From a virus (taxonomy: Duplodnaviria > Caudoviricetes), in IMG/VR virus record IMGVR_UViG_3300021387_001774, positions 199,687-263,686 of that record: 64,000 bases of DNA; one strand, written 5' to 3'. The notes below the pieces were generated by a model. It did not search any database, was not told where the DNA came from, and saw nothing but the letters and a program-made list of their open reading frames with translations. The position numbers and the translations under genes were made by a program. Shown piece after piece: positions 3,758 to 44,052 of this stretch. How positions within the stretch are numbered: the first letter of the stretch is position 1; the number at the start of each line of letters is the position of its first letter.

Positions 3758-3818
3758 AGCACTATAGTTTAAATGGTAAAACAGTTTATCTATGGGAGTT
3801 CAAATCTCCCTAGTGCTG
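3758..3818 (+). ncRNA. tRNA-like RNA lacking the anticodon arm
   Basis: Acceptor AGCACTA/TAGTGCT, D arm GTTT-AAATGGTA-AAAC, T arm GGGAG-TTCAAAT-CTCCC; only 11 nt between the D and T arms. Confidence 0.8.
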
Positions 3819-3890
3819 TATGAAAATCTTATTAACTAAAGATTTTCATAATTGACTCCTTGGGGACCCGGTAGTAACCGGGTCCCATTT
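3819..3890 (+). ncRNA. candidate antisense sRNA S1 (hairpin - anti-SD toehold - terminator)
   Basis: Hairpin TATGAAAATCTT/AAGATTTTCATA, single-stranded ATTGACTCCTT, terminator GGGACCCGG/CCGGGTCCC; 3840-3861 is complementary to 18754-18776. Confidence 0.65.
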
Positions 3891-3937
3891 TATATTTTTT
3901 TTCTAATTATATATTATATAAGTGGAGGATTTAAACT

Positions 3938-4831
3938 ATGAATTTAGGAACAGATTTTGAGGTCTTGAGTGAATATCCACTTTGGACATACGACGAACAT
4001 GATAAGCCAGTATTGATACAGAATACATACGATAATATCAATGTAATTCGTTATTGGCCTATGGGTAAAAAGAATCATCATTTTTATGATATCCCTATTG
4101 AAGAACCAATTACAGCATTTATGCCGTTTGGAACATTCTTCTTTAAAACACAAGAAGAATGTGCTAGATTTGGTAAATTAATCGATTCTCAAGAGGGTAA
4201 GCAGACAGTTCTAGAAAATTCGTATGAGTGTTCTAGAAAAAATAAACATATAGTTAAAATGAGTTGTAGAGATGATATACCTAATGGTATATATTCTACT
4301 AAAGTATTAGACGATATTATAAATGCTGATGAACTCTTTAACTTACGTTATGTAGATGAAGAGTGTAAAATAAAAGAAATTATGCAAGCTAATGACATCA
4401 TTAATAAATATGTAAGAGAATACATGAAGATGTTTACTTTTACAGAACGTCATGATTTACGATATGAGAGAGTTTTATTTGAATTATATAAAGAAGGAAA
4501 TAAACTATATATTAATCACGTTTTTATAAGTTGCGGTAGTTATTTTACAAATAATGATATTTTATTACATTCAAGGATAATGAATTATCCTATTTGTGTA
4601 GCACCAAATTGTGCTAAAACTGTACAAATAGTTTTGACAAATGGTGGTTTTAATGCATTGAGTATGCAAGAACGACAAATTTCTTTGAAAAATATTAAAG
4701 ATGCAAAAGCTAGAAAAGAAAGACATAAAAAATTAGCTAAAAATATTGCTAAGATGTGTGGAGAATATGCTTGGGAACATAAAGGTGAGATATTCATGAA
4801 ACTAAAGAGCTTAGTGTCTACAGTTGTATAA
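3938..4831 (+). CDS. hypothetical early protein
   Basis: GGAGG RBS, early promoter at 3905. Confidence 0.8.
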   Translation: MNLGTDFEVLSEYPLWTYDEHDKPVLIQNTYDNINVIRYWPMGKKNHHFYDIPIEEPITAFMPFGTFFFKTQEECARFGKLIDSQEGKQTVLENSYECSRKNKHIVKMSCRDDIPNGIYSTKVLDDIINADELFNLRYVDEECKIKEIMQANDIINKYVREYMKMFTFTERHDLRYERVLFELYKEGNKLYINHVFISCGSYFTNNDILLHSRIMNYPICVAPNCAKTVQIVLTNGGFNALSMQERQISLKNIKDAKARKERHKKLAKNIAKMCGEYAWEHKGEIFMKLKSLVSTVV

Positions 4832-4835
4832 AACT

Positions 4836-4869
4836 AGTGGGAGGATATAATTCCTCCCACTTATTTTTT
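4836..4869. terminator. bidirectional intrinsic terminator between convergent genes
   Basis: AGTGGGAGGA/TCCTCCCACT hairpin with a T tract. Confidence 0.75.
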
Positions 4870-5558
4870 TATTTAAGTCTAGAAATTACAGAAGTTAATG
4901 CTTTGTCCATATCATTTAACTTCGTAGACATATCGTTCACTTTTCCAAGGATATTATTGTCAGAGAATTGTGAATTGATTTGCTTAGCAGACGTTTCTAA
5001 TGAAATCATTGATAATAATGAATCATTAGCTTTATCTATAATAGCTCTAGATTTTTCTAGTTGGGATCCTACAGAATCTAATGAATTATCATAAATTTCT
5101 GTAAATTCAATAGATACTTTTTCTTTTTCTATATTATAAGCTTTATCTATAGCATTTTTTATAGTTTTTACAATATCATCTTTGTTAAATGTATCTGTAT
5201 TAGAAAGATTCTTTATTTTAAACTCCATCTTATATACGTGACTTTCATTTATAATCTCTGTTTTATCAAAATCAATAATATCGTCCCAAAGGATTAAATG
5301 ATCATTAGTAATTATCCATTCACCATTTTTGTTTTCAACTACAGCACAATCATAATAAATTTGATTTTTAAGATATTCTAGTGTATCTCCATCACCAACA
5401 TTATTAATGAATTTTTCATTAATAGCTACATTTTCTACCATAGAATTATATTGGGAAGCACGTTCATAATTAATATATCCCAATATTTTAACTTGTTTGT
5501 TTTCTATGTAATTGGATGTAGTAAATACAGAATAAAGCTTATTTATATTTAATTTCAT
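4869..5558 (-). CDS. hypothetical late (probably virion) protein with C-terminal coiled coil
   Basis: AGGAG RBS; late promoter 5591-5580. Confidence 0.8.
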   Translation of the reverse strand: MKLNINKLYSVFTTSNYIENKQVKILGYINYERASQYNSMVENVAINEKFINNVGDGDTLEYLKNQIYYDCAVVENKNGEWIITNDHLILWDDIIDFDKTEIINESHVYKMEFKIKNLSNTDTFNKDDIVKTIKNAIDKAYNIEKEKVSIEFTEIYDNSLDSVGSQLEKSRAIIDKANDSLLSMISLETSAKQINSQFSDNNILGKVNDMSTKLNDMDKALTSVISRLK

Positions 5559-5663
5559 ATAATTACTCCTATTATGGTATATTAGAATGTTTTTCTTATA
5601 AATATTAAAAATATTTAAAATAATAAAATATAATGAGTTTTATTTTTCGAAAAGGAGTCTTAT

Positions 5664-6197
5664 ATGAAAGAGATCGTTGATAATTTTACTATTCATTTTG
5701 GAAATATAAAATTTTTTGATGTGGCAGATGGTCCTGGAGTTAGAATAGCTTTGTATGTTTCTGGTTGTCCTCATGCTTGCGAGGGATGCCACAATAAAGA
5801 ATCTTGGGATTATAATTACGGTAAAAAGTTTACTAATGATGAAATGACTATAATTGTAGAAAATCTTAAAAAAGAATTTATTACTGGATTTTCTATACTT
5901 GGTGGAGAACCTCTTGATCCTAAGAATCGTTCAGATGTTTATTCTATTATAGAACTAATAAAAGAACAATTTCCTGATAAAAGTATTTGGGTATGGACCG
6001 GTTATACATGGGAAGAATTAATGGAAAAGAAAGCTATTCCACAAGACATTTTAAAACTTATAGATGTAATTGTAGATGGACGATTTATTCTTTCCCAAAG
6101 AGATATTACACTAAAATATAGAGGTTCACCAAATCAAAGAGTTATCGATGTACAGAAAACTCTAAAAAGTAATTCGATTACATATTATTGTGACTGA
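5664..6197 (+). CDS. nrdG: anaerobic ribonucleotide reductase activating protein (radical SAM)
   Basis: DGPGVR, GCPHACEGCHN (CxxxCxxC), LGGEPL, DGRF, RGSPNQR. Confidence 0.95.
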   Translation: MKEIVDNFTIHFGNIKFFDVADGPGVRIALYVSGCPHACEGCHNKESWDYNYGKKFTNDEMTIIVENLKKEFITGFSILGGEPLDPKNRSDVYSIIELIKEQFPDKSIWVWTGYTWEELMEKKAIPQDILKLIDVIVDGRFILSQRDITLKYRGSPNQRVIDVQKTLKSNSITYYCD

Positions 6198-6211
6198 AAA
6201 GGAACAAGAAT

Positions 6212-7285
6212 ATGAATATTTTATGTATTGGTGATATCCATTTTGGAAAATTGAATAATGATGATTATGTTTATGAATGTCTTAGAAAACATTTTATAGA
6301 ATACGCTAAGAAGAATAAAGTTGATCTTATAGTAATATGTGGAGATTCGTATGATTGTAGAGTAATGGTAGATTCTACAGCAAATATTAATTTTAATAAA
6401 TTTATATCTGATTGTATTTCTACCGGTGCTACAATTATAGTAATAGAAGGAACTGAATCACATGAAAGATATCAAATAAATGGATTACTTCATTATATAT
6501 CAGACAAATTCTTTATAGTTAATACTGTAACTAAGTTAAATATATTAGGTCTAAAATTACTTATTCTTCCAGAAGAATATGTTAGAGATCAATCATATTA
6601 TAAAGAATATCTTGATGATAAATATGACTTTATATTTGGTCATGGTATGAGTACTCATGTAGGTTTTGCTGGTAAAGTAAGCGATGAGATTATGAAATCA
6701 CCATATGTTTGGGATGCTAAAAAATTGGAACAGATTTGTAGATACTATACTGTGTTTGGTCATATACACACCCATTCTGAATACCATCATTTTATTTATA
6801 CTGGATCATTCTCTAGATTAAACTTTGGAGAAATGGAACCCAAAGGTTTTATTCACATTAAACTCGATAAGAAATGTACTTACGAATTTATTGAAAATAC
6901 AGATGCTCCGAGATTTACAGATATAATAGAATCTAAATTACCAAATGATACAGAAGCATTATTAAAACATCTACGTGGTTATCAAGAAAATAATGACTTT
7001 CTTAGAATTATTATAGATCAATCCGATGATAGTAAGTTCAATACGATAAAAGGATTTGTAATGAATCATAAAAATTGTTGTACTAAGAAAGTTATAAATA
7101 CATCAGAGAAGAAACTTGAAGAAATATCTGAGAATATAAAGGAGAAACAAAATTTATTAAACGATAAGATGAAAGATTATAATAATATGAATTTTGTACA
7201 AATTACACAGAAGATAGCAAAAGATGAATATCATGAAGATTTTTCTCAAGAAGAGATAAATACAATTCTAAACTACGTTGTATAA
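6212..7285 (+). CDS. sbcD: SbcD/Mre11-like metallophosphoesterase nuclease
   Basis: GDIHFG, GDSYD, GTESHE, FGHG, FGHIH, YTGS motifs. Confidence 0.85.
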   Translation: MNILCIGDIHFGKLNNDDYVYECLRKHFIEYAKKNKVDLIVICGDSYDCRVMVDSTANINFNKFISDCISTGATIIVIEGTESHERYQINGLLHYISDKFFIVNTVTKLNILGLKLLILPEEYVRDQSYYKEYLDDKYDFIFGHGMSTHVGFAGKVSDEIMKSPYVWDAKKLEQICRYYTVFGHIHTHSEYHHFIYTGSFSRLNFGEMEPKGFIHIKLDKKCTYEFIENTDAPRFTDIIESKLPNDTEALLKHLRGYQENNDFLRIIIDQSDDSKFNTIKGFVMNHKNCCTKKVINTSEKKLEEISENIKEKQNLLNDKMKDYNNMNFVQITQKIAKDEYHEDFSQEEINTILNYVV

Positions 7286-7300
7286 AGGAGAGTAGACGTA

Positions 7301-7750
7301 ATGACAGTGACTGAACTTAGGGTAACAATGGATGAATTGTTGGGTTTTAATGAGTTTTTAAAACGTAATGATTTTGGTGATAAAATTCTTTATAAAGCAA
7401 AATCACTTACTGATCAGCCATATATAGATATGACGTCATTGGCTAGGAGAATGTATAAATTTTGTTATCAGAGAATTTCAAATGAAACAATAGAAAAGAA
7501 AATTAATAAAGGTAAATATGAAACTTGGAACGAATTTATTGGTTCATACAGAATCATTTTAAAAGATAACAATCCTAGGGACTTCGATGGTGTTGATTTG
7601 CCTGGAGAAGAAAAAACTGAAGATGCGACTGATTTTGCAAAAATGCTTTTTATGTGTATATACGATTTCTGTTATAAACAAATAGTTAGTATTTCTAAAG
7701 ATATATATGGTAACTTTTTACACAATGTTGCTATTGAAACCAAAAAATAA
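7301..7750 (+). CDS. hypothetical protein
   Basis: AAGGAG RBS; same operon as nrdG/sbcD. Confidence 0.8.
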   Translation: MTVTELRVTMDELLGFNEFLKRNDFGDKILYKAKSLTDQPYIDMTSLARRMYKFCYQRISNETIEKKINKGKYETWNEFIGSYRIILKDNNPRDFDGVDLPGEEKTEDATDFAKMLFMCIYDFCYKQIVSISKDIYGNFLHNVAIETKK

Positions 7751-7799
7751 ATAAAATATATATAATATATGTGAATTAAATACGCCAAGGAGTTTTACC

Positions 7800-8231
7800 A
7801 TGACTAGAGAAGAACCAATGGATTTTGGTGGATCACCTATTGATATACAAGACTGTATCAGTGATGATCTTATTAGTAGGATTAAAGGATTGAATCCTGA
7901 TTTAGGTGTAGCAGGAAAAGATCCTTTATATGAACATTATGCACAGCACCGTGACGAAATTGAAAATGCTGAACTTATAATCATAGATGCTAATAGTCTT
8001 AATAGAAGTTCTATTATGAATCTTGATTTGTTCGGAGATATTTCTGGTATACAAGATCTACCGGCAGATTATTTCCAGTTGAGAGATGACACTCTTGAAT
8101 ATGGATTTGGTAGAGATGAATTTAGTGTAGACTGGAGTGATAATAGTAATGAAGGTTTCGGAGATGAATTTGGTGGATACACTGACTTTGGAGAAACTGA
8201 ATTTAGTCTAGAATCAGATGGTATTTATTAA
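7800..8231 (+). CDS. acidic hypothetical protein
   Basis: AAGGAG RBS. Confidence 0.75.
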   Translation: MTREEPMDFGGSPIDIQDCISDDLISRIKGLNPDLGVAGKDPLYEHYAQHRDEIENAELIIIDANSLNRSSIMNLDLFGDISGIQDLPADYFQLRDDTLEYGFGRDEFSVDWSDNSNEGFGDEFGGYTDFGETEFSLESDGIY

Positions 8232-8258
8232 AAGTTAAAAATACTGAACAAATAAATG

Positions 8259-8319
8259 TAGCAGAGGAAATACTTGTATCCAAAAATCCCATCCCACTCA
8301 TACTGTATGACCTCTGCTA
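8259..8319 (+). ncRNA. hairpin RNA with C-rich loop in the tRNA-Asn 5' leader
   Basis: TAGCAGAGG/CCTCTGCTA stem directly after late promoter 8247; loop AATCCCATCCCACTC. Confidence 0.45.
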
Positions 8320-8330
8320 TTTTTATAAAT

Positions 8331-8404
8331 GTCTCTTTAGCTCAGTTGGTTAGAGCTCCAGCCTGTTAAGCTGGATGTCGTAGGTTCGAGCCCTACAAGA
8401 GACG
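8331..8404 (+). tRNA. tRNA-Asn(GTT)
   Basis: Full cloverleaf GTCTCTT/AAGAGAC, CCAGC-CTGTTAA-GCTGG, GGTTCGAGCCC; no encoded CCA. Confidence 0.95.
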
Positions 8405-8488
8405 TTCTGCTAACAAATAACATTCATAGGCTGGTGTGTTTTTGTTCTCCTTTTTATGGTAGCTTGTTAAGCTACCATATTTTTTTTT
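8405..8488 (+). ncRNA. candidate anti-SD sRNA S2 in the tRNA-Asn trailer
   Basis: Weak hairpin, then TTGTTCTCCTTT, then terminator ATGGTAGC/GCTACCAT with a T tract. Confidence 0.45.
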
Positions 8489-8526
8489 GTTTTTATTCTA
8501 AATAAATTAATATATGAGGTTTTATT

Positions 8527-9882
8527 ATGCATAGACATTATGAATATTTTTTCGATATATTATTTACGATACCTGCTAGAAACATTTCTTTTAAACCTTA
8601 TTCAATGGTAGAATTTGTTAAAGAATGTAATTATCATAATAGTACCATTCCTTCATATAAACTTAAATGTAAAATAAAAGATAAGAATTTAAACGTTTTA
8701 CGTTTATATGATAAAGAAGTAATGGTAAATATAAAACAATATATGTATTATGGAGAAAAAAGAGAAAATTTAAGTGATTGTAAAATATTATTGGATCTAG
8801 ATTTTGCTTGTTACTTTGATAAGAATTCGTTACCTAATTATATGGCTTCTGCTAAAAAGGCTAGTCCTACAATAGGTGAGAAAGACGAATATTTACCAAA
8901 TACTCTTGGTGTAGAAACACCACACGAAATTCAATTTTTTCTTTTATTAAAAGATGATTTGAAAATGAAAACATTTATACATAATTATGTATTTGGTTCA
9001 GAAGAAATGCCTGCGTCAACTATAGATGCGGTAATGACTATAGTTGAACAGAATCCATATGTAAAAGAAGTACTTATAGATCCTCCAGATAATACGAATA
9101 AATATACAGATATTATAGTTGAACCAGCAGAACTAAAAGATGCTATTAAAAATATACAATATAAATATGGTATATATTCTAAAGGATTAGAATTATTTTT
9201 TGATAACGGAATGCTTTATATTTTAAATAAAATGGAAATAAATCATTCTAAACGAGAGAAAGAATTAAATGTTATTCAGATAAGAGCTAATGAAAGAACA
9301 GATATACCAAGTACAATAGATTATGCTCTAATTAATGAAGACGAAGGATATATAGGATATGAACGAAAAACAACAGTTTCTAAAATGGATTTTGAAGCAA
9401 TAGAAGGTATTTACTCTGGTGATAAATTTGTATTTAGCAATTATGGAACGGTTATAAATTCTATGTTTGGTGATAAAGGTAAAACAACATTTGTTTCACC
9501 ATTGAATAGCGTTGATAGACCTAGACCAGCTAGAGTAGATGTAGGAGTTAAAAAAATATTGGATTACGATATGCTAAATAATCCATTTAATATGAGTTCA
9601 TATATGTTCGAAAAGACACCGGGTGTACCTATAAGTTTAGCTATAACATCTATGAATCCTGAACATTTTACTCCTAATAAAATGGTTAAGATAGGTTTTG
9701 ATACATCCGAATCACAAAAGATGTATTCTGGTTTATATAATATACAATCTGCTTCTTTTGTTTATAGACAAACTCAATCTAATCCTGCAAAACGTTTTAA
9801 TGCTTTTGGACATGCTGTATTAGTATTGGGTAATAAACAAGAAGGATATGATAAAGATTATGAACCATTAAAAGAAAAATAA
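8527..9882 (+). CDS. hypothetical protein, possibly tail/baseplate hub-like
   Basis: 451 aa ORF with GAGG RBS; function is a guess. Confidence 0.7.
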   Translation: MHRHYEYFFDILFTIPARNISFKPYSMVEFVKECNYHNSTIPSYKLKCKIKDKNLNVLRLYDKEVMVNIKQYMYYGEKRENLSDCKILLDLDFACYFDKNSLPNYMASAKKASPTIGEKDEYLPNTLGVETPHEIQFFLLLKDDLKMKTFIHNYVFGSEEMPASTIDAVMTIVEQNPYVKEVLIDPPDNTNKYTDIIVEPAELKDAIKNIQYKYGIYSKGLELFFDNGMLYILNKMEINHSKREKELNVIQIRANERTDIPSTIDYALINEDEGYIGYERKTTVSKMDFEAIEGIYSGDKFVFSNYGTVINSMFGDKGKTTFVSPLNSVDRPRPARVDVGVKKILDYDMLNNPFNMSSYMFEKTPGVPISLAITSMNPEHFTPNKMVKIGFDTSESQKMYSGLYNIQSASFVYRQTQSNPAKRFNAFGHAVLVLGNKQEGYDKDYEPLKEK

Positions 9883-9920
9883 AATAAACAGGGAGATATT
9901 TCTCCCTGTTTATTTACTTA

Positions 9921-11258: not shown

Positions 11259-11385
11259 ATTACTCTCCGATAAAAAAGAATTAGAAAGATCATAACGACC
11301 TTTCTATATTTTAATGTTATTTAAATTACATATTATATTCGTGGATAGTAGAAATACTATACTAAATAATATAAGGAAGGAAGAA

Positions 11386-11652: not shown

Positions 11653-11665
11653 GAGGGTAGATAGA

Positions 11666-11879: not shown

Positions 11880-13082
11880 TTAATTCATTGTTGCTACAGT
11901 TATTGATTTTTTTGCTCTAGTTATACCAGTATATAACCAGCGGAAATATATGTGTGATGGTATTCTGTCTTCGACTACTAGTAATACATTATCGGCTTCT
12001 GATCCTTGATATTTATGTACAGAAGCAGCATATCCATAGTCAATCATACATATATCACCTAATGTTTCATCATCTATATTTTCATTATATAGCTCTTCTA
12101 TAAATGCTTCTTTAGCTGGATTCTTTTGATACTGCTCAAATATTTGACAGAAGCATTTAGGTTTCAATGATAATTCAGGATTAGTATTATCTAAGAAATC
12201 TGGAGTGAAATTTAGATCGACTAATTCTAAATCATTATAATCTGTAATCTTTGCATCTTGATTTACAATACCAAACATTCCATTTATAATATAAATAGGA
12301 ATATCTTGGTAATCAATCATGTAATTATAATTATTCATTAAACACATAATTCGTTCACCTTTTACTGGATAAACACTTGTATATCCTTTAAGTTGACGAA
12401 TATATAAATTTAATTTTCTTCTCATAGCATTTGAAAAACAAAGTACTATGTCGTAATCTAATATTTTTTCACCAATTTCTTCAAAATGTACCACTTTACT
12501 AGCATTATAAGTTCCATATTCCAATTGTTGACAACTTCTAGCTATACTAGCTAATTGTAATATACCACTAGAGTCATCTTGTCTCATAGGTTTTGATAAG
12601 AATACATCTGAATATTTTTCAGGTTCTGCAATCAAAAAATTAATTTTTCCGAGACAAGGTAACTGAAACCAGTCACCTAAACAAATAGTCGGAACTCCAA
12701 ACGATAATATATCTTGTAGCATTTTTTCTGTAACCATAGAAACTTCATCTATAACTATAAGTTTTATATTTGGATTAATATGTTTTTTGAGATTAAACCC
12801 AAATGAAGTTCTCGTTTTGAATACAGAATAAAATGTTTTATGCACTGTGTTAGCTGGATTACCTTTCATTCTTAGAACTAAAGCTGCTTTACCAGTTAAT
12901 GTACAGAAAATTACATCTTGATTATTTAATCCTAGCATTTTAATAATGATACTAAGTACAGTTGATTTACCAGTTCCTGCTAAACCAAATATAGTAAAAT
13001 ATGGTTTAAATACAGAATCAGTAAAATACCATTGTACACATTTCTTCACAGCGTCTAACTGTTGATCATTTAAAGTAATCAT
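11880..13082 (-). CDS. SF1B helicase (Dda/RecD-like)
   Basis: GLAGTGKST Walker A, DEVSM, GDWFQL, HKYQGSE, YTGITRAK. Confidence 0.9.
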   Translation of the reverse strand: MITLNDQQLDAVKKCVQWYFTDSVFKPYFTIFGLAGTGKSTVLSIIIKMLGLNNQDVIFCTLTGKAALVLRMKGNPANTVHKTFYSVFKTRTSFGFNLKKHINPNIKLIVIDEVSMVTEKMLQDILSFGVPTICLGDWFQLPCLGKINFLIAEPEKYSDVFLSKPMRQDDSSGILQLASIARSCQQLEYGTYNASKVVHFEEIGEKILDYDIVLCFSNAMRRKLNLYIRQLKGYTSVYPVKGERIMCLMNNYNYMIDYQDIPIYIINGMFGIVNQDAKITDYNDLELVDLNFTPDFLDNTNPELSLKPKCFCQIFEQYQKNPAKEAFIEELYNENIDDETLGDICMIDYGYAASVHKYQGSEADNVLLVVEDRIPSHIYFRWLYTGITRAKKSITVATMN

Positions 13083-13100: not shown

Positions 13101-13216
13101 AAAAAAATAAAAAGGAGGAGATCGCTAACTGGGTGGGAAGAAATGCGACCTCCTCCTAACATAAGGAAGAAAAATGGGGAAAGCTATTAGAGAATGGACA
13201 CTCTATAGCTTCCATG
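13101..13216 (-). ncRNA. candidate antisense sRNA S3
   Basis: Own early-type promoter (13232-13218), 5' hairpin, single-stranded CCATTTTTCTTCCTTATGTT, terminator AGGAGGAG/CTCCTCCT with a T tract; no ORF. Confidence 0.7.
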
Positions 13217-17387: not shown

Positions 17388-17648
17388 TTTGGTAATAGGA
17401 ATGAAGATAGAAAGGTTGTTACACAAGAAATCTTTTTATTGAGATATGTCTTTGAGTGTACAATAGGGGATATATCGAGATAAAATAATATTTTCATTCA
17501 TTAACTATTGCCGTTAGATAATAATAAACAACTCAAGTGTATTAAAACTGAGACAATGATAGATAATCGGCCGTAAAAAATCTTGTTTTCTAAACTCTTT
17601 ATTATCATCAGATAAATAAAGAGCTAGTTTTAATGAGTTGTTAATTTT

Positions 17649-17713
17649 CGTCTTATAGCTCAGTGGTAGAGCGGTGGACGCATAATCCGTTGGTCCGAAT
17701 CCAAGTAAGACTC
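17649..17713 (+). pseudogene. degenerate tRNA(CAT)
   Basis: D arm and anticodon arm present, but G at position 33, 1-72 mismatch and the 5' half of the T arm deleted (GGTC^CGAATCCAAG). Confidence 0.75.
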
Positions 17714-17782
17714 ATATTTTAAGTATTTAAACTAAATATAATATAATTATATATTATATTAGTGAATAAAGAAATTTATTTT

Positions 17783-17863
17783 GGGGAAGTGGTGGAATGC
17801 AGACACATGAGCCTTAAGAGCTTACGCCGTATTGGCATACGGGTTCGAGTCCCGTCTTCCCTA
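17783..17863 (+). tRNA. tRNA-Leu(TAA)
   Basis: GGGGAAG/CTTCCCT, TGAGC-CTTAAGA-GCTTA, long variable arm, GGTTCGAGTCC. Confidence 0.92.
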
Positions 17864-17986
17864 AGGCAGAAAACATAAGTCTATCGTGAAAAGGGATTAA
17901 GTTCCCCTATGATAGATGGTCGAACTAGGATGGAATATCCTCAGGAAGAGAGTTTTGCACGTATTAGATCTTCCAACTTTGTTTAA

Positions 17987-18134
17987 GGTATAGCAAAACG
18001 GCTAGTCATTGATACGTATCATTAGGTGATAGGACTTCTTAAGCGTAGTTCAAACCATTATAGTTGAAACTTATTGCTGGGAAGACTTAATGATATTAGT
18101 ACTTTGATTGTGAGTTCGATCCTCACCTATACCA
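17987..18134 (+). ncRNA. 148-nt tRNA-like RNA with a long rod replacing the D/anticodon arms
   Basis: Acceptor GGTATAG/CTATACC-A, T arm GTGAG-TTCGATC-CTCAC, internal helices TATCATTAGG/CTTAATGATA and CTTCTTAAGC/GCTGGGAAG. Confidence 0.65.
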
Positions 18135-18137
18135 ATC

Positions 18138-18390
18138 GGTGGTTTATAACAAAGTGGCTAAAAAGTATGCCCACCATCAAGCTTCTTTCTTCATTGTATA
18201 CTGGGGAGAAAAGAAGTATAAATATCCTACCACGCATGCGTGATCGCTTATACTGCTGTAGCCATGAGAAAGTCGCTAGTATAAGACGGAAGAGTAGGTA
18301 CTTTTACAAATGAACAGTCCCTTTGCCTGTTTCGAGAACGACGGCATTTGTAGAAGTAATGGTTTATAGCTGGTTATGAAATAGGCACTT
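18138..18390 (+). ncRNA. multibranched structured RNA within the tRNA cluster
   Basis: Helices TTTATAAC/GTTATGAA, CCTAC/GTAGG, CTTATACT/AGTATAAG, TACTTTTACAAATG/CATTTGTAGAAGTA; raised GC. Confidence 0.55.
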
Positions 18391-18544: not shown

Positions 18545-18765
18545 AGAGTATATAGGTGAAGGGCAACAACCTGTATACTTATATGATTAGAGCCAACTTG
18601 GTAGAGGCTTTAGTTGTATGTACCTCTTATATTGAAGAGTGGGTTTCGCCGCCCACTCTTCTTTTTTTATACTGTTAGAGAGAGAGTGTCAATTATATAT
18701 TATATTAATAGTAAGGAATGGAAATTGGTTCCATATCCGAAAGAGATTTCATTAAGGAGTCAATT

Positions 18766-19353
18766 ATGGAAAATCTCAGAGAAATTAATGATGACATTAT
18801 GCTTTATGTCATTAAAAGATCAAGCAGTTCACATGAAGAATATACGGGGATTCCACTCCCCGTATATTTTGTAGATCTACGTGATCTTTACAAAAATGCT
18901 ATTGAGGTCGGCATTTTTGATTATATAGCTGACCTCACGGCTGGATCGTCAGCATTCTGTTTCAGATACGGAATAGTTTGCGATGAACGGATCAAGAATA
19001 ATTCTGAATTGGCCTTTATTCTTCATCATGAGGCAGGTCATATCTTAAATGGAGACATTTATGAACCTTCTGATGATGATGAAAAGGAGTATGCTGCAGA
19101 TCGTCATGCTTATGATGTGACACACCATATTCCTGATTTTAGTAAGATGATCATTGATTATGCGATTCATTGTTTCGATGAATTCACTGATCAAGAGATC
19201 AATGAAATAACTTCAGGGAATTTCAGCGGCCTTGAAGATTATAGAATGACTGCTGAAAAGATGCTTTCTGAGAGCGAATGTGGAGAAGCTTTGACTCTTA
19301 GAAAATTAAAACTGCAAGAGTACATAAACTCTAAAAACGAGTTTAATTATTAG
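18766..19353 (+). CDS. HExxH zinc metallopeptidase (ImmA/IrrE-like); start reassigned to ATG 18766
   Basis: LHHEAGH...EKEYAADRHA; AAGGAG RBS at 18754. Confidence 0.75.
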   Translation: MENLREINDDIMLYVIKRSSSSHEEYTGIPLPVYFVDLRDLYKNAIEVGIFDYIADLTAGSSAFCFRYGIVCDERIKNNSELAFILHHEAGHILNGDIYEPSDDDEKEYAADRHAYDVTHHIPDFSKMIIDYAIHCFDEFTDQEINEITSGNFSGLEDYRMTAEKMLSESECGEALTLRKLKLQEYINSKNEFNY

Positions 19354-19481
19354 TAGTCCTGAATTAATTAAATCGTGGGGGGTGAAATGCTCCCACGATT
19401 TAATTTTTTTAATATTTTTTTAATTATATATTATATTAATGTAAAAGGATCGTTGATCCTTAAATATTTTAACCAAAAAGT

Positions 19482-19552
19482 ACCTGAGTAGGAGAAATGA
19501 AAGGGTCGCCTAGAGAAAGGTCTACTATGTTATAGGGATAATCACAAAGGAG
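19482..19552 (+). promoter_or_regulatory. conserved structured 5' leader RNA, copy A
   Basis: ACCT-GAGTAGGAGAAATGAAA-GGGT, hairpin, CTA, hairpin, GGATAA; other copies at 30656, 46426, 47032 and 57801. Confidence 0.8.
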
Positions 19553-19557
19553 CAATT

Positions 19558-25157: not shown

Positions 25158-25481
25158 TTAAACTTTAAGATAGAGTAGAAATACTCTATCTTAAAATTTC
25201 TGTTCAAACCCCATGTCTAATTATATATTATATTAATGAACACATATATAAAACATCTGTTTCATAAGCCTAAATGTGTTCAAGGGGGTGAATTAATATG
25301 GATACAGATGTAGAGATTGACATCGAAGGTTATATTGAATCTAATCTATAAAGATTGATTCGACCTTCGATGAGAAATTTTATTAAAGAAAGGGATCAAA
25401 TGATCCCTTTCTTTTTTTTAATTATATATTATATTAGTGAGTGGGAAAACAAAGAAATATATCCTACTAAGGGAGAAATTT

Positions 25482-30561: not shown

Positions 30562-30655
30562 TATTATAATAGTAAGAGGGATTTACTCCCTCTTACTTAT
30601 ATTAAAACTGTTCAAGATTATATATTATATTAATAGAATAAACTGAAAAAGAAGT

Positions 30656-30716
30656 ACCTGAGTAGGAGAAATGAAAGGGTCACCTAATGAATAGGTCTAC
30701 TATGCTATAGGGATAA
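30656..30716 (+). promoter_or_regulatory. conserved structured 5' leader RNA, copy B
   Basis: Nearly identical to copy A, with a compensated P2 (ACCTA/TAGGT). Confidence 0.8.
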
Positions 30717-30738
30717 ATTCATAACATAGGAGGAAAAT

Positions 30739-36450: not shown

Positions 36451-36486
36451 AAAAAAACTAGTGGGTCTATACCCACTAGTTTTTAT

Positions 36487-36804: not shown

Positions 36805-37098
36805 AGTATAACTCCATAAAATATAAATAGTAGAGTTATTTCTAACTCTCCATTTATATAATATGTAAATAAAAAAAGAGCGGTAGGCTTATCCTACCGC
36901 TTATTTGTTTTATAATTAAAACAAATCATTAAATCATAGAGTGATTATAAATTCCTGGGAGGGGAAAACAAGATGGCTATTTCACATGTTTAACAAAAAG
37001 AAACTTGTGTAACGATTCCACTCTAAAAATCGTAGGGCCTAACCATCTATATTTATATATTCACATATTTATATAAAATTAAATTTATAGGAGATATT

Positions 37099-37575: not shown

Positions 37576-37909
37576 TCAAAATCAGGACATGGGTCTAGCT
37601 ATTGATGAACTAAATAAGGCTTTATCTGATGCTGAATTTCTAAAAACGCATTTAAACACTATGGAGATTTTAGCTAGAAATCAAGCAGAAGAAATAGCAG
37701 CACTAAATAAACGATATAAAGGTTTAAAGAGAGTTAGAATCGGAAGTCTTTGTGTTGGTGGTGCTGGTTTAGTTATAGGTCTTACTGGTTATTTTGTAGA
37801 GAAAAACAGTAGTTCTGAAGATTTAGGTAAAATGATGATGATTGGTGGTGCTACAGCTTTGGGTTGTAGTGCAGCAACATTTGGACTAAGTTTTAGTATT
37901 CCGTTTTAA
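37103..37909 (+). CDS. overprinted exported coiled-coil protein with C-terminal hydrophobic hairpin
   Basis: Signal peptide MKNSKFRKSLLLLAVLLLFFVSGLSAQA; two C-terminal Gly-rich hydrophobic helices ending FSIPF. Confidence 0.7.
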   Translation: MKNSKFRKSLLLLAVLLLFFVSGLSAQADTSDLEEFQELASSLSTESYLAEKQQINSLMSLILQELRSSPQKTMDKQSLKELENYEKLVKSADYAQMPLSSQLKEMRKTMKIYSKLEETISNQSTMLSSWQLNVLNYMSKLFEHMNRLSQIMEKIVTSQNQDMGLAIDELNKALSDAEFLKTHLNTMEILARNQAEEIAALNKRYKGLKRVRIGSLCVGGAGLVIGLTGYFVEKNSSSEDLGKMMMIGGATALGCSAATFGLSFSIPF

Positions 37910-38041
37910 AATAAAGATGGGGTATATTTACCCCATCTTTTTTATTTATATATTATATTAATGAAAGATTCGTTGTATCTTATTATAATAATTATTGAAG
38001 TAGAGATGATACTACTATAAACATAAGGAAGGAATTGGAAT

Positions 38042-38479
38042 ATGACTAAAGAAGAAAAGAAAGAATGTATGAAGAAGTATCGTGAAACTCATAAAGAACA
38101 GATCAAAGCTCAGAATAAGAGGTATTATGATACTCATAAAGATAAAAGCAAAAAATATTATAAAAATAATAAAGATAAAATTATTGAACAGACTAAGAAA
38201 CGCTATGAATCTACTAAAGAACTAGTTTTAAAATTTAATAAATATCGACGATATTTTTATAAGAAATTTTATAGGTTTATTACTTTAAAGAATTATATTA
38301 TTATAATGAAACTAGAAGATGAATCATTAAAACGTTCTATTATGGCTAAGTTAGGTCATGGCATCATAGATCAAGATGAAGCAGTAGCATTATCAGGTAT
38401 GATATTTACAAAAGATGATCTGAAAGAAATGAATGAGTGGCTTTATAATGTCTGTAGATGTAAAAGTAATTTATCTTGA
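38042..38479 (+). CDS. basic K/Y-repeat protein, paralog of 56392..56886
   Basis: KKYRETHK-type repeats; shared C-terminus NY.IIMKL.D.SLKRSIM.KLG.G.I..DEAV.LSGM. Confidence 0.85.
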   Translation: MTKEEKKECMKKYRETHKEQIKAQNKRYYDTHKDKSKKYYKNNKDKIIEQTKKRYESTKELVLKFNKYRRYFYKKFYRFITLKNYIIIMKLEDESLKRSIMAKLGHGIIDQDEAVALSGMIFTKDDLKEMNEWLYNVCRCKSNLS

Positions 38480-38565
38480 TCTATAAATAAAGGTAGTCTT
38501 TAGACTACCTTTATTTTTTTATTCTATATTGAAGACAAACCTATATATTTTATAGGAGAATTACT

Positions 38566-39504
38566 ATGGTTAATAATTATATTGCTAAAGAAGATATGCT
38601 TATAGTAAGTGATGATGATCTTACTTCTTCTAATGGAAAAATTACTAAAACTGTTATGAATGGTGTAAGTGATTGTGCAAGTCTTATTAATGCTATCGAA
38701 AATTACAATGATACTAATAAACTTGGTCTAGGAAAACGTGTCAATTATGCAGTTTCTACAGGAATAACATACATTTCTGTATTAAGAGCTTATCCTGTAG
38801 GTGCTTCACATATGTGTATTATTGGATGGGATAGTAATGGTAAATCTGTTGCCACATTTGATGTTAATAATACACAAACTAATCTTATGACAAGTTTGTC
38901 TACACATTTGATTCCAAATGATAAGATTCATGATGTTGTATTAGGTTCTTGTGATCCTGATAAACTTACAGATATTATTAATACATTTAAAACTAAAGAT
39001 GATATTGATGAGAGAACATTGCTCGATATTCTTGAAAGACTTTATCAAGATATTACTGATTATATTACTTCTAATAACTATAGAGGTGCTATTGAGATCT
39101 TTAATTATACTATGAAATCCAATAACCTCAATGATTATGATTATCATCACAAACGTAGAGCATATAATAAATATGTCGATGTTTATGTTAAATATATTAC
39201 TATTCTTAAAGATATCGTTATGGAATACAATGAATGGTCAAAAACAAAAGATCATGATCTTGCTGTATTTAAGAAAGTAAGATTAGTTGATTTTGTTGAA
39301 ACTGAAGATGATATCGATACGCTTGTTAGAAATAAACATGAATACGAATATGGTACATCTGTTTATGATATGCAGTATGACAGTTGGAAAGCAGAAGTTC
39401 TTCAGAAGACATTTACTGTAGACGAAGTAGAGACTTTCAAACAATGTATCGATTATGAACATATGAGTTTTGATCCAGCTGGTAATCCTATCTGGAAAAA
39501 CTAA
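38566..39504 (+). CDS. hypothetical late protein
   Basis: AGGAG RBS; late promoter at 38534. Confidence 0.8.
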   Translation: MVNNYIAKEDMLIVSDDDLTSSNGKITKTVMNGVSDCASLINAIENYNDTNKLGLGKRVNYAVSTGITYISVLRAYPVGASHMCIIGWDSNGKSVATFDVNNTQTNLMTSLSTHLIPNDKIHDVVLGSCDPDKLTDIINTFKTKDDIDERTLLDILERLYQDITDYITSNNYRGAIEIFNYTMKSNNLNDYDYHHKRRAYNKYVDVYVKYITILKDIVMEYNEWSKTKDHDLAVFKKVRLVDFVETEDDIDTLVRNKHEYEYGTSVYDMQYDSWKAEVLQKTFTVDEVETFKQCIDYEHMSFDPAGNPIWKN

Positions 39505-39637
39505 ATATTATATAAAAGTTACTGGGATTTGTTCCCAGTAACTTTATATTAAACTTGTTGAAGAAATAATCAAATATATATTATATTTATGAAAGATACG
39601 TTGTATCTTATTGAATATATGAAGAGGAGTAATCAAT

Positions 39638-39877
39638 ATGAATAAAACCGAAACTGATCCGTACTATGAAGAAAAATTGAAAAACTCTATTGAAAATTTT
39701 AAAAAATGGTGCTTAAACAACCCAACATGTATTGGAAAAGGTTGTTGTCAAGATTGTACACATTTGATCGATCCTAAACGATATGGAGAATGTTCTGGTC
39801 CTCCATTAGATAGGAACGAATTGTGTGAACCAGGTTATCAACAATTTAAGGAGAAAAATAATGAAGAAGGAAAATAA
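39638..39877 (+). CDS. small Cys-rich early protein
   Basis: GAGGAG RBS; 7 Cys. Confidence 0.7.
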   Translation: MNKTETDPYYEEKLKNSIENFKKWCLNNPTCIGKGCCQDCTHLIDPKRYGECSGPPLDRNELCEPGYQQFKEKNNEEGK

Positions 39878-40208
39878 AGAAATATTAGAACGGATAAAAC
39901 TTGTTATTAAACAATACGATAAAATGGGGGTAACACTTGATTCATTTTTAATTGGTGGTAGAGAAACCGATTATTTTGATGAAAAAGAAAAAGAATTGAA
40001 AATCCCATCTGTAGAATCAATTTACTGTTCAGGTTATATTGATTCTGAAAGTGTTGGACATTTACATCCACAAATATTAATGAGTAAATTTCAATTATAT
40101 AATGAATCTGTTAATAGTCTTATAAATGGAGCACTTGGTAAAGAAAATAATGAATTTTCTAAATCTACATTTTTAAGAACTACTGGGATTAAACGTATCG
40201 ACGATTAA
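39861..40208 (+). CDS. hypothetical protein (start ATG 39861)
   Basis: AAGGAG RBS. Confidence 0.75.
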   Translation: MKKENKEILERIKLVIKQYDKMGVTLDSFLIGGRETDYFDEKEKELKIPSVESIYCSGYIDSESVGHLHPQILMSKFQLYNESVNSLINGALGKENNEFSKSTFLRTTGIKRIDD

Positions 40209-40316
40209 TTGAAAGAATAGAAGGGTGCTGCCATCCACCCTTCTTTTTTTATTTTTTTCTTAAATATATATTATAAGAAAGATACTTACAATAAAATATC
40301 TATAAAGGAGTAAATT

Positions 40317-40541
40317 ATGGCAGTTGTTAGAATTAATAAAGCTGGTAAAAGAATCCATCATCGTAATCCTTCGGGATTCATAAATAAAATAAGGTATTTG
40401 TTATGCGAATCAAAAAGAGATATTGGTAAACTACGATATATTGTTAAATATGAAATAGATTATACTAATTGTGGTAAAGCGACTTGGGATCATGCATATT
40501 CGATGGCTTTGAAACTAATAATTAATGGAGATACTTTATAA
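40317..40541 (+). CDS. small hypothetical protein
   Basis: AAGGAG RBS. Confidence 0.75.
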   Translation: MAVVRINKAGKRIHHRNPSGFINKIRYLLCESKRDIGKLRYIVKYEIDYTNCGKATWDHAYSMALKLIINGDTL

Positions 40542-40551
40542 GGAGTTATAT

Positions 40552-42963
40552 ATGTCAGATAGAGTTGAAGATAAAAAGAAATTATATCTTGATGATGCCA
40601 TTAAACATCTAGATGATATAGAACACATTCGTTTACGTGTTTCTATGTATCTTGGTACTATTGGTACATTAGGATTGTATAAATTGGATTGTGAACCTAT
40701 TCAGAATGCTTTGGATGAAGCTATGGAAGGTTTCGGTACAAAAGTTAAAGTAACATTAGACTCTAATCAAAATCTTATGGTTGTGGAAGATTGGGGTCGT
40801 GGTATTCCTGTTACTAAAATGAAAGCGGTATTTACTGAATCTCATACCGGTGGTAAATTCAATAATGATACTTATAAATTTCATGCTGGTGCTAACGGAA
40901 CAGGTAATGCAGTTTTAGCAGCACTTTCTAATTGGTTAAAAGTTGAAGTATATCGTGAAGGTTATGAATATGAAGGAGAAAAAGTTCCTGCTAAACATGG
41001 AATTATTGTACTTGAACGAGGTGTTTTGAAAGAAGAGTTTTATGAGGATCTTCCTAAAGGAATTCCTTCTGGAAAACATAGAGGTACAACTGTTTCATAC
41101 ATAACGGATGATTCCGTATTGAAAACTACTGAACATGATGTTAAAAGACTTTGTGATCAATTTAATAACTTATCATATTCTAATAATGGAATTGAATTCA
41201 TATTTGATCATGATGGTACTGTTGATAGGTTTTATCACACTGGTGGTATCGAAGAACAGATTAAAGATTTTATTCATGCTAAGAAAATCCATCCAATTAT
41301 TCCAACAGTTACTTTTTATAAAGATGAACCACATTTTGACTTTAATGTAATATTTACATATGGAACAAAGAACTCTGGTGATTCTAACGTTGTTTCTTAT
41401 GTTAATGGTAATACAACTCCATTACATGGATATCATGTAGGATCTGTAAGAGCTGGAGCATCATTAGCGTTAACAGATTATGCAAAAGAAAATCAAGATC
41501 TTATTCCTAAGTCTTTTAAAGATAATCTTTCTGGTACACTTATTAGTGATAACTTAGTTATTGTAATTGGTGTTAGACATGAAGATCCATTGTTTGATGG
41601 ACAGACGAAAGACAGTTTTAAATCCCCAGATGTACAAGAACCAATAAAACAAACTACACGACGTGTATTTGGTAAGTGGCTTAGAGATAATCCACAACAT
41701 GCAAAGAAACTTATCAATCTTATGATTGATTATGCTAAGTATGAAGAAGAAAGAAAGAAACTTAAGAAAAATCTTATAGAAACTAAAGCTACGAAAAGCG
41801 TTTTTGCAGCTAATGGTATAGATCCTAATAAGTATACTACTTGTAGAAGTAATAATCCTGAAGAACGTGAACTATTTATTGTTGAAGGAGAATCTGCTGG
41901 TGGTTCTGTAGCATTGGCTCAAGATCGTCAATTCCAAGCATTATATATGCTTACTGGTAAGATTCTCAATGTTATAAAGGCTAGTCCAAATAATCTTAGT
42001 AAAGTAATTCTGGATCTTGTACAAGCTCTTGGTATGGGACTTCCTAATGCTGGACCTGTAAATTATAAGAACTTACAATATCATAAAATTATTATTCTGA
42101 CTGATGCTGATGATGATGGTGCACATATTGCCACACTTCTATTAGCATTCTTCTGGAGATTTTATCCAAAGATTATCGAAGAAGGAAAGGTATTTATTGC
42201 TAATCCTCCAATTAAGAAATTAACAATGTCTGATGGTAAGTATTTCTATATTCATACTGATGCTGATTATAACAGACTTATGAGAAAGTTTAATGCTGAA
42301 TTATTTGATCTCGTCAGTATAAAGACTAATAAAGTTCTTAGTAAGTCTTTGTTTGAAGAGTTTATTTATCATTGTACTAATTATGATATTCTTATTAATA
42401 ACCATTGTAAATCTCTTGCAATGGAACCAGATCTTCTAGAACATATTGTAGTAAATATTAATACTCTTATGGAATGTGATGAAAATATGAGTTCTAAAGC
42501 AAATATGGAATTCTATAAGAAAACAGGATATAGAGTAACAAGAAGCGATAATATTTATTTCACATTTGATAAAGGTGTTACCCACTTTAATCTAAAAATG
42601 GATAAAGGGTTCATGGATCATCATTTCTCTATTATTAGAGAAAAGCTTGAAGAGATTATGATTTATGGTGTATATCTTAGAGGAAAGAAATCTGGAAAAG
42701 AATATCGTGGAACGATATATTATTTAATGAGTATCATGAATTCTATACTAGGACAGAAAATCGAAATAAACAGGTTTAAGGGTCTTGGTGAAATGGAATA
42801 TTATGAACTTAGTGAAACAGCAGTAAATCCTGCAACTAGAAGATTAACTAGAGTAAACATGGAAGATGCTAGCAAAGCTGAAAAAGCTATGAATTTATTT
42901 ATGAGTGATCAGAATATTAAATTCAAGCGATTTTACTATGCTGGGAAAGTAGATTTTGACTAA
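40552..42963 (+). CDS. gyrB: type IIA topoisomerase subunit B (GyrB/ParE-like)
   Basis: EPIQNALDE, DWGRGIP, HTGGKF, GANGTG, VEGESA, DADDDG, RFKGLGEM; AAGGAG before ATG 40552. Confidence 0.93.
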   Translation: MSDRVEDKKKLYLDDAIKHLDDIEHIRLRVSMYLGTIGTLGLYKLDCEPIQNALDEAMEGFGTKVKVTLDSNQNLMVVEDWGRGIPVTKMKAVFTESHTGGKFNNDTYKFHAGANGTGNAVLAALSNWLKVEVYREGYEYEGEKVPAKHGIIVLERGVLKEEFYEDLPKGIPSGKHRGTTVSYITDDSVLKTTEHDVKRLCDQFNNLSYSNNGIEFIFDHDGTVDRFYHTGGIEEQIKDFIHAKKIHPIIPTVTFYKDEPHFDFNVIFTYGTKNSGDSNVVSYVNGNTTPLHGYHVGSVRAGASLALTDYAKENQDLIPKSFKDNLSGTLISDNLVIVIGVRHEDPLFDGQTKDSFKSPDVQEPIKQTTRRVFGKWLRDNPQHAKKLINLMIDYAKYEEERKKLKKNLIETKATKSVFAANGIDPNKYTTCRSNNPEERELFIVEGESAGGSVALAQDRQFQALYMLTGKILNVIKASPNNLSKVILDLVQALGMGLPNAGPVNYKNLQYHKIIILTDADDDGAHIATLLLAFFWRFYPKIIEEGKVFIANPPIKKLTMSDGKYFYIHTDADYNRLMRKFNAELFDLVSIKTNKVLSKSLFEEFIYHCTNYDILINNHCKSLAMEPDLLEHIVVNINTLMECDENMSSKANMEFYKKTGYRVTRSDNIYFTFDKGVTHFNLKMDKGFMDHHFSIIREKLEEIMIYGVYLRGKKSGKEYRGTIYYLMSIMNSILGQKIEINRFKGLGEMEYYELSETAVNPATRRLTRVNMEDASKAEKAMNLFMSDQNIKFKRFYYAGKVDFD

Positions 42964-42978
42964 AAGGAGAGTCGGAGA

Positions 42979-43518
42979 ATGAGTATATTAGCTATAGCTA
43001 CAGAGTTTAATCGTTTGGTTAAATCTAAATCTGGACCTATCTCTGATGATTATAACGTTCAATTGAATGTGGAATTATTTAGAGATACTGTGTCCAATAT
43101 TTTTAATAACGAAATGTTAAAACTTAAGATAGAAGTTCTTACAGAATATTCTGTTGATAGTAAAGAGTTTGTTGATTATATTAAAACCAAGATAATCAAT
43201 TTAGATTATTCATTTTTACCATCTGGTATTAATAGAGAAGACACATTATGTATTTGCTCAGCCACATTAAAAAATGACTATAAAATCATTGGTACCTTTG
43301 TTTGTCAAAAAGGTAAATATGTTAAGAAAACTATGGAAAATAGAGCGTTTGATGATGTGCTGGATAAACTAAAAACTTTAGAACGATATTATCTTATGAA
43401 TAAACTGTTTGAAGTAAACGATAAAATAAATAACTTAAGAATGGTCAAAATGGATATTGAAAGAAATTTAATTAATCTAATCAAAAACAATAAAGTTATT
43501 ATTCCAATAGTTTTCTAA
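42979..43518 (+). CDS. hypothetical protein
   Basis: AAGGAG/GGAG RBS. Confidence 0.75.
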   Translation: MSILAIATEFNRLVKSKSGPISDDYNVQLNVELFRDTVSNIFNNEMLKLKIEVLTEYSVDSKEFVDYIKTKIINLDYSFLPSGINREDTLCICSATLKNDYKIIGTFVCQKGKYVKKTMENRAFDDVLDKLKTLERYYLMNKLFEVNDKINNLRMVKMDIERNLINLIKNNKVIIPIVF

Positions 43519-43539
43519 ATTTTATTATAACATATAAAT

Positions 43540-43726
43540 ATACTTGTATGTACACGAATTGAATTTTGAAATTTTTGATTAAAGAAATTTGCCTTTTTGT
43601 AGGAAGTGTTATGAACATAGTATAACCCACTAGTTTATAACGCGGGTCGTATCAATGGGTTAGATACGATAACATAACCTCGTGACTACATATTTCCCTT
43701 AGTCACGAGGTTATTATTTTTTTTTT
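43540..43726 (+). ncRNA. candidate late sRNA S4 (pseudoknot-capable, anti-SD terminator loop)
   Basis: Late promoter at 43529; TCGTATC/GATACGA hairpin whose loop TGGGTTA can pair with upstream TAACCCA; 14-bp terminator stem with loop ACATATTTCCCTT. Confidence 0.55.
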
Positions 43727-43793
43727 GAATCAATGTATGGTTTTCTAGTTTTTACCGCATTGATTAGAAAAATTTAAAACGATATATTTTTAT

Positions 43794-43904
43794 GCCTGCG
43801 TTTTGTCATTTTCGGTAATGGTTGATAGAAATGTTTGAAAGACACCTTATAAAGGTGAATCGAATGAGCAGTCTATCATAGAGGTTCAAAACCTTTCGTG
43901 GGCG
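43794..43904 (+). ncRNA. 111-nt tRNA-like RNA with extended anticodon arm
   Basis: Acceptor GCCTGCG/CGTGGGC, D-like hairpin TCATT/AATGG, TGATAGA/TCTATCA enclosing CACCTT/AAGGTG, T arm AGAGG-TTCAAAA-CCTTT. Confidence 0.65.
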
Positions 43905-44052
43905 TTTGACAATTCAGACTGTCATGTCCCCTTATTGGCGGGTGTTTTTCATGCTTTCCTCCTTATTCATGTTAAACATTAGGGATACGGTGCTCCTGAA
44001 TGGTTACTTGCTCGTACTGATGTACTGCTGTCGTTGACAGCAGTACTTTTTT
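43905..44052 (+). ncRNA. candidate antisense sRNA S5 in the tRNA-like trailer
   Basis: Hairpin TGTTT..CATG/CATG..AAACA presenting loop CTTTCCTCCTTATT; terminator GTACTGCTGTC/GACAGCAGTAC. Confidence 0.6.

Follow-up and report, generated by a model that had tools for sequence, protein, structure and literature searches.

Do large lytic phages release small RNAs that act at ribosome-binding sites (RBSs), and if so, on whose mRNAs? This question is raised by a stretch of 64,000 nucleotides (nt; hereafter, the window) that makes up the last 64 kb of the phage record IMGVR_UViG_3300021387_001774 (263,686 nt, 29.5% G+C, judged 94% complete). In a preliminary description, five units in the window, denoted S1 to S5, were proposed to be microRNA-like guides, processed from tRNA-shaped precursors, that shut off the translation of the phage's own early genes or of host mRNAs. 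Here, we find that S1 and S3 fit two repeated early leader families above chance. Trans-acting RNAs directed against RBSs are the best reading of the units, because their linkers are conserved whereas their stems and antisense open reading frames (ORFs) are variable and because the S1 and S3 fits exceed chance. However, a general rule of one own early target per guide is not supported, as S2, S4, S5, and a sixth unit, S6, have no such target above background.

The multi-subunit RNA polymerase (RNAP) genes of the record are approximately 30% identical to their counterparts in AR9, PBS1, and LPJP1. As judged from its sequence, the record is an AR9/phiKZ-like, lytic, two-RNAP jumbo phage of the rumen, with no close named phage among the matches to it. 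Relatives were drawn from rumen and other ruminant gut metagenomes (origin as given by sample and record names), and their helicases are 50–99% identical to that of the record.

Layout and Conservation of the Units

All five stretches lack ORFs and fold into one or more hairpins, an open linker, and a terminator, as had been described. S1 (3819–3895, plus strand) comprises a hairpin, an exposed linker complementary to a Shine-Dalgarno sequence (anti-SD; guide at 3840–3861), and a terminator, and S2 (8405–8490, plus) is a tRNA trailer with an anti-SD linker and a terminator. S3 (13101–13216, minus) stands alone and consists of a 5' hairpin, a single-stranded guide (13177–13158), and a terminator whose loop (13139–13130) carries a C-rich motif. 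S4 (43540–43726, plus) is a structured RNA with a pyrimidine run in its terminator loop, and S5 (43905–44056, plus) is a structured trailer RNA with an anti-SD segment. Additional to these are three elements with a C-rich loop and S6 (18546–18668, plus), a unit of like layout behind tRNA-Gln in which hairpins are followed by an anti-SD linker (18622–18628) and a terminator. A scan of the window and its relatives against Rfam returned tRNAs only.

Late promoters had been assigned to S1, S2, and S4, and motifs of the form AACA-N6-TG/TA are indeed present at 3439, 8247, and 43529. The first (3439–3450, plus; AACA-N6-TG) lies 5' of a 54-codon ORF, a tRNA mimic, and S1, but S1 also lies behind that ORF and an early-type motif in the same transcription unit (3494–3505, plus; read from the sequence and present also in relatives). 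The second (8247–8258, plus) heads a unit of C-rich hairpin, tRNA-Asn, and S2, and the third lies ahead of S4. S3 is preceded by an early, virion-RNAP-type motif (13231–13220, minus; consensus from PMC5312081). Judged by sequence only, the units form ORF-free transcription units of their own, with a promoter or a predicted processed 5' end and with a 3' terminator.

S1, S2, S3, and S5 are conserved units. Among strains of approximately 93% identity, the change in the S1 hairpin is compensatory and the linker is 100% unchanged, while in S3 the stems are rewritten and the linker and terminator loop are fixed. Strain L037 has new sequence in both S3 stems around an identical 16-nt linker core. 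A conserved single-stranded seed amid variable stems is a property of both S1 and S3; S5 is wholly conserved in the strain compared, its core being identical, and hence offers no contrast between seed and stem. The designation of S4 as complementary to both SD and ATG was not sustained, since in another strain its loop keeps the pyrimidine run and loses the CAT. In more distant lineages, the same sites are occupied by units of the same design carrying new guides. Among relatives, an anti-SD lies ≤22 nt upstream of 14 of 24 terminators of the noncoding RNA (ncRNA) class as against 6 of 358 mRNA terminators (Fisher 5e-15), classes being assigned solely by upstream content, and the enrichment persists when homologues are discounted (8/17; Fisher 7e-9). 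The same scan exposed S6. Collectively, these observations suggest that the units are very probably real, selected ncRNAs.

The conserved linkers could instead be the RBS and start of tiny ORFs on the opposite strand, or functionless relics of inverted leader duplications; S1 and S3 each read SD plus ATG on that strand, and the genome shuffles leader cassettes. However, the opposite ORFs vary from 3 to 33 codons across strains and are therefore not the selected feature, and antisense peptides were rejected as the function of the units for this lack of conservation. Promoter motifs, tRNAs, and U-tract terminators share the orientation of the guide strand, the resemblance to leaders ends at the linker, and one lineage has kept the anti-SD without the CAT. 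It is thus very improbable that the linkers are conserved for antisense ORFs or persist as relics.

Several elements in relatives resemble the units or occupy comparable positions. In relative G003 (approximately 206100–206400), a tRNA-Ser trailer has three tandem anti-RBS-like segments, for which no own target was found, and relative G001 (77230–77380) has a 3' untranslated unit of two CAT-spacer-anti-SD segments and a terminator, with no clear own target. Relative G005 (L020:12400–13080) carries, after a topoisomerase gene and at the position of S4 and S5, an ORF-poor structured region of approximately 680 nt that ends in a tRNA-like frame. Arrays of short degenerate intergenic repeats in G003 (212600–214500) are possibly a replication origin or a spacer-like array.

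Pairing with Repeated Early Leaders

An AT-rich motif resembling the early consensus of AR9, for which early and late promoter consensus sequences are available (PMC5312081), lies 5' of approximately 58 of the 225 genes. Many early genes share repeated structured leaders, and the cargo behind these is partly unrelated. The family A leader (promoter, two hairpins, open RBS) has nine copies in the phage genome, including those at 37945–38041 and 56296–56391 (both plus; the latter 5' of a paralogue at 56392), which are predicted S3 targets. Families B and B' are further early leaders, and a two-member leader family includes the gene at 18766.

Matches were evaluated against two nulls. RBS-like 26-mers from related phages, compared with the start sites of this genome, gave a base rate of 2.2–4.3% for a match of ≥15 nt and of 1/811 for two matched sites; the second null comprised shuffles that retained the anti-SD core. 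These replaced pooled foreign-site p-values, which had a floor of 0.22. A guide-by-target energy matrix, whose diagonal form followed from the way it was built, was given no weight.

Guide-target fits differ among the units when set against these controls: S1 and S3 beat the nulls, but S2, S4, and S5 lie at background and S6 is borderline. The match first noted for S1 was borne out, with positions 3840–3861 pairing over 15+7 nt, with a bulge between, at the RBS and start of its predicted target, an early gene of HExxH type (18754–18776, plus; gene at 18766), and none of 150 core-keeping shuffles was as good. A second match of 15 nt lies at a gene outside the window that has the same leader type, and so the two sites are not independent. 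The S1 segment was, moreover, picked with the match known, which makes the foreign-site rate a fairer null than the shuffles. The match of S3 to the gene at 56392 also stood: positions 13158–13177 pair over 15–16 nt with five family A leaders, that of 56392 among them. Neither the five best S3 sites nor their early-gene enrichment was equaled in 150 core-keeping shuffles (0/150 each; best single site, p 0.05). With both molecules folded, early genes take all of the top 8 places among 207 accessibility-aware S3 sites, and 7 of these belong to family A. For guides that have turned over in the S3 slot, three of four lineages have their best local match at an early start site, with p 0.1–0.2 for each except lineage A.

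The targets suggested for S4 (25482; 9 nt) and S5 (30739 and 55078; own best match 11 nt) proved to be at background level (p 0.15–0.8). For S2, no significant target was detected among the start sites of this genome, and its pairing with a family B leader (-19 kcal/mol) is no better than with foreign leaders. The best own target of S6 is not significant, at a borderline p of about 0.05 in core-keeping shuffles.

Other features of the early leaders and of the S3 neighborhood are as follows. The proteins encoded at 38042–38479 and 56392–56886 and three copies outside the window are early paralogues without a Pfam family, all under family A leaders, and the copy number of this leader varies between strains (L102). 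Leaders of families B and B' (120–135 nt, structured) lie at 19423–19557, 30617–30738, 46372–46505, 46978–47111, and 57747–57878 and match nothing in Rfam; three other lineages also carry family B, ahead of different cargo genes. At 25220–25420, an early promoter leads into a hairpin, then possibly a short ORF, and then a terminator. The helicase gene (11880–13082) has no SD, and a late-type motif ends at its ATG, which suggests a leaderless mRNA; in relative G003, this gene appears interrupted near its 5' end.

Proposed tRNA and tRNA-Like Scaffolds

The placement of S1, S2, and S5 directly 3' of a tRNA or tRNA mimic was confirmed. The S1 mimic (3758–3818, plus; 61 nt) has no anticodon arm, matches the Rfam tRNA model (46.7 bits, E 7.9e-7), and is identical in the 93% strains, and S1 starts right after its discriminator base. 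Across four lineages, its acceptor, D, and T arms are kept while the middle varies in length and sequence. S2 follows tRNA-Asn(GTT) (8331–8404, plus), and S5 follows a tRNA-like frame of 111 nt with a replaceable insert (43794–43904, plus); in another strain, this insert is replaced though the S5 core is identical. In a further frame (17987–18134, plus), a long insert, itself swapped in strains, replaces the anticodon arm. Such frames are common in this phage family, some without a trailer. A tRNA-like frame is thus conserved directly 5' of a small RNA (sRNA), an arrangement like that of the tRNA-microRNA-encoded RNAs (TMERs).

None of the three scaffolds of S1, S2, and S5 is followed by an encoded CCA. 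RNase Z cleaves CCA-less precursors after the discriminator base, and RNase Z was above cut-off in five of five genomes of Treponema, the likely host (see below). Processing of these scaffolds is therefore plausible, and release of the trailers by tRNA-processing enzymes is a possibility that we place somewhat below an even chance. The sequence gave no sign of an Argonaute-loaded guide of approximately 22 nt, and no search for Argonaute genes was made. Elsewhere in the window, the tRNA cluster (17389–17790 and 17865–18390) includes long, ORF-free structured stretches and a degenerate tRNA (17649–17713), and in strain L010 a tRNA-Met is reduced to an anticodon-less frame.

A C-Rich Loop Resembling That of a Treponema Small RNA

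Hairpin loops of most lineages sampled contain the C-rich motif CCCCTCCCACCCA; at least 8 phage relatives have it either exactly or with one base changed, and one lineage has it in a tRNA-like frame, where the anticodon would be. The window has degenerate copies in a hairpin before tRNA-Asn (8259–8319, plus; loop 8288–8300), in the loop of the S3 terminator, and in another ORF-free unit with a terminator (36865–37050, minus; 5' end approximate; loop near 36963) that is 96% conserved in one strain. In a scan of IMG/VR, hairpins with this loop turned up in four unrelated phage groups; one such loop lies directly behind a tRNA-like element, and one group is a prophage in the uncultured Treponema sp. 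RUG517. Another of the loop-bearing unrelated phages, L129, carries a cluster of tRNA-like frames with long inserts.

Of 151 genomes of the Treponema family, 49 carry the loop 14-mer, each as a single chromosomal copy; the control gave 0. Each of the 31 loci examined holds an RNA gene of approximately 80 nt in which a long stem enclosing the loop is accompanied by a small hairpin and a terminator; this RNA gene (e.g., L242:1480–1575) usually lies downstream of a conserved gene of approximately 330 aa. The stem covaries, with two-sided change in 11 of 15 pairs, and of 41 genomes of a rumen Treponema genus, 35 gave one hit each with a model, R1, the 13-nt loop being invariant in 24 of 24. An AAG-N14/15-CGAT motif precedes the sRNA at 28 of 31 loci by strict pattern and resembles the sigma28 promoter that has been mapped for flaB2 of T. 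denticola (PMC9481697). In a phylum-wide sample of 61 genomes, the exact 14-mer was present in five, comprising three of the Treponema family with the sRNA and two without its layout. The sRNA belongs to no Rfam family, a weak match to SorY being far below cut-off.

Phage copies share only the stem and loop with the host sRNA (15–25 bits under model R1) and have neither its second small hairpin nor its sigma28-like promoter; the degenerate copies in the window do not match the model. By sequence, then, the phage copies are loop mimics and not full homologues. The C-rich loop appears to be host-derived, which points to host-directed action.

The loop in the Treponema sRNA, the prophage copy, and the phage tRNA-Gln, which is up to 92–96% identical to Treponema tRNA-Gln (compared with Treponema alone), together suggest that the host is, with good probability, a rumen Treponema. 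A search for host CRISPR spacers gave matches that were swamped by tRNA hits. Hfq was detected neither in the phage nor in four Treponema genomes.

No conserved target in Treponema was identified for any guide or for the C-rich loop. Complements of S1, S3, and S5 fall on unrelated genes in 46 genomes, and the 16-nt site of S1, exact in the phage, is present in 0 of the 46. Matches to a long loop complement at ≤2 mismatches equal the control in Treponema genomes, with none in the phages themselves, and where the host loop matches 15 nt at the start of a 307-aa gene, only 2 of 10 orthologues inspected keep that match. Given that no conserved target was found, short-seed pairing at G-rich SDs, as in RsaE (PMC2790875), and protein binding are both possible modes of action.

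Protein binding is the basis of a second alternative, in which the RNAs are decoys or sponges: the loop would titrate a partner of the host sRNA, tRNA-like frames would decoy anticodon nucleases or tRNA-sensing defenses, and mRNA pairing would be secondary. In its favor, the 13-nt loop is invariant in the Treponema copies inspected and in several phages without a long conserved complement, and the frames are numerous, some of them trailer-less. However, the anti-SD linkers change sequence between lineages yet keep the CAT-spacer-anti-SD design, a pattern more in keeping with pairing than with a fixed protein site, and the host sRNA itself reads CAT-spacer-anti-SD in many rumen Treponema. A primary role as decoys is accordingly improbable in our assessment, and we consider it probable that the RNAs act by pairing at RBSs.

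Own Early Genes or Host mRNAs

Whether pairing at RBSs is directed at the phage's own early genes is less certain. That S1 and S3 regulate own early cassettes is a reading to which we give slightly less than even weight, and several observations weigh against it or against own targets as a general property of the units, beginning with the background-level or borderline matches of S2, S4, S5, and S6. Guides of a 99%-complete relative have no own match above background (best 11–13 nt). The S1 target ranks only 7th once structure is counted, because both partners must unfold, and the S1 core is kept in lineages that yielded no homologue of its target; homologue searches for the target genes reached only close strains or other leaders. 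In strain L037, the S3 match lacks its 5' five nt and weakens from -22 to -17 kcal/mol, and the family A leader persists in a lineage (its genome only partly seen) without S3 at that site. No compensatory change between guide and target was demonstrable among the lineages compared. The inferred host, the lack of a conserved target in it, and the degenerate state of the loop copies in the window count against the reading of an anti-RBS battery as a whole, given below.

The observations on own targets bear on a third alternative, namely that all units target host mRNAs or act as broad anti-SD RNAs in a takeover of translation, with the leader fits of S1 and S3 a by-product of shared SD usage. 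Own targets are lacking for four of the six units and for every guide of the near-complete relative, the S1 core predates its apparent target, and the loop is host-derived; in addition, the invariant S3 core holds an anti-ATG register to which family A can be fitted only if a bulge is allowed. On the other hand, S1 and S3 exceed both nulls, and the complements in the 46 Treponema genomes lie on unrelated genes with no conserved orthologous target. We therefore regard exclusively host-directed or unspecific action as unlikely.

The reading that we favor, at about even probability, is that a battery of anti-RBS sRNAs, partly released from tRNA scaffolds, tunes the phage's own early cassettes and probably host mRNAs. 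Simple shut-off of early genes, as the preliminary description envisaged, does not suit S3, which itself lies under an early-type motif (13231–13220) and, being early, can tune but not simply shut off. In the proposed mechanism, host RNase P and RNase Z would cut the tRNA or tRNA-shaped leader and so define the 5' end of the trailer, and the terminator would set the 3' end. S1 and S3 would then base-pair, independently of Hfq, across SD and start codon in multi-copy early cassettes, dampening a whole cassette family at once; S3 would set dosage early, and S1 may add a late shut-down. S2, S4, S5, S6, and the C-rich loops would act on RNAs outside the phage, most likely host mRNAs, and the C-rich loop, in imitating a sigma28-type Treponema sRNA, would add to or compete with the activity of that sRNA.

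Only tentatively can this be extended to lytic jumbo phages of rumen Treponema in general, in which a tRNA-shaped modular platform may release exchangeable anti-RBS guides that control own early cassette families and which, together with unrelated Treponema phages, may imitate the seed loop of a sigma28 (flagellar-class) sRNA of the host and thereby rewire host translation or motility in the course of infection.

How phiKZ/AR9-like phages turn down early genes post-transcriptionally and take over host translation is largely an open question, and the trans-acting phage sRNAs in a recent review (PMC12197685) are mostly from temperate phages. Two specific guide-leader pairs come out of the analysis, along with a candidate role for the tRNA look-alikes without an anticodon that are common in large phage genomes. 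The recurrence of the loop of an uncatalogued, conserved Treponema sRNA in at least five unrelated phage groups suggests that phages gain from attacking this regulatory node of the host, and it can also serve as a signature for predicting the hosts of uncultured rumen phages.

Comparison with Known Systems

The mechanism resembles that of known anti-SD sRNAs, whereas a battery of such RNAs in a jumbo phage, replaceable tRNA-like scaffolds, and a borrowed host loop were not found described; a literature search of incomplete coverage returned neither the Treponema sRNA nor such a phage system. RsaE, RNAIII, and LhrC of Firmicutes share the 5' hairpin, the unpaired pyrimidine-rich anti-SD segment, and the terminator, and Rsa RNAs pair at the RBS independently of Hfq (PMC2790875, PMC4132741). 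The unpaired UCCC motif of these RNAs is present in the phage and host loops, and no Rfam covariance model for them matched in the window or at host loci. The units described here differ in being phage-encoded, in having a likely spirochaete host, in the many that are tRNA trailers, and in a 13-nt invariant loop in place of a short UCCC box.

In the TMERs of gammaherpesviruses and in bacterial tRNA-trailer RNAs, a tRNA-shaped leader is followed by a small RNA that would be freed by 3' tRNA processing. In contrast to TMERs, no Dicer or Argonaute step is implied here, the trailers are structured and 70–150 nt long, and processing is a prediction. Bacterial Y RNAs of the YrlA type, one member of which is an RNase P substrate, share a tRNA-like domain without a canonical anticodon arm and an occurrence in phages (PMC4201824). 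Identity with Y RNA was rejected, there being no TROVE/Ro60 match in the 94%-complete genome and no Rfam match to YrlA.

Sigma28-dependent sRNAs of E. coli and Campylobacter (PMC10578931, PMC11187230) share a sigma28-like promoter with the Treponema sRNA. The Treponema sRNA differs from them in having no sequence family match and no known target or phenotype.

Among phage RNAs, c4 of P1 and P7 is processed by RNase P. Together with VpdS, PreS, and AgvB, it belongs to the phage RNAs that act in trans on phage or host RNAs, c4 targeting a phage mRNA (PMC12197685). Those RNAs are from temperate phages and are mostly Hfq-dependent single RNAs (PMC12197685), whereas the predicted system described here is that of a lytic two-RNAP jumbo phage and combines six or more units, multi-copy leader families, and a host-copied loop.

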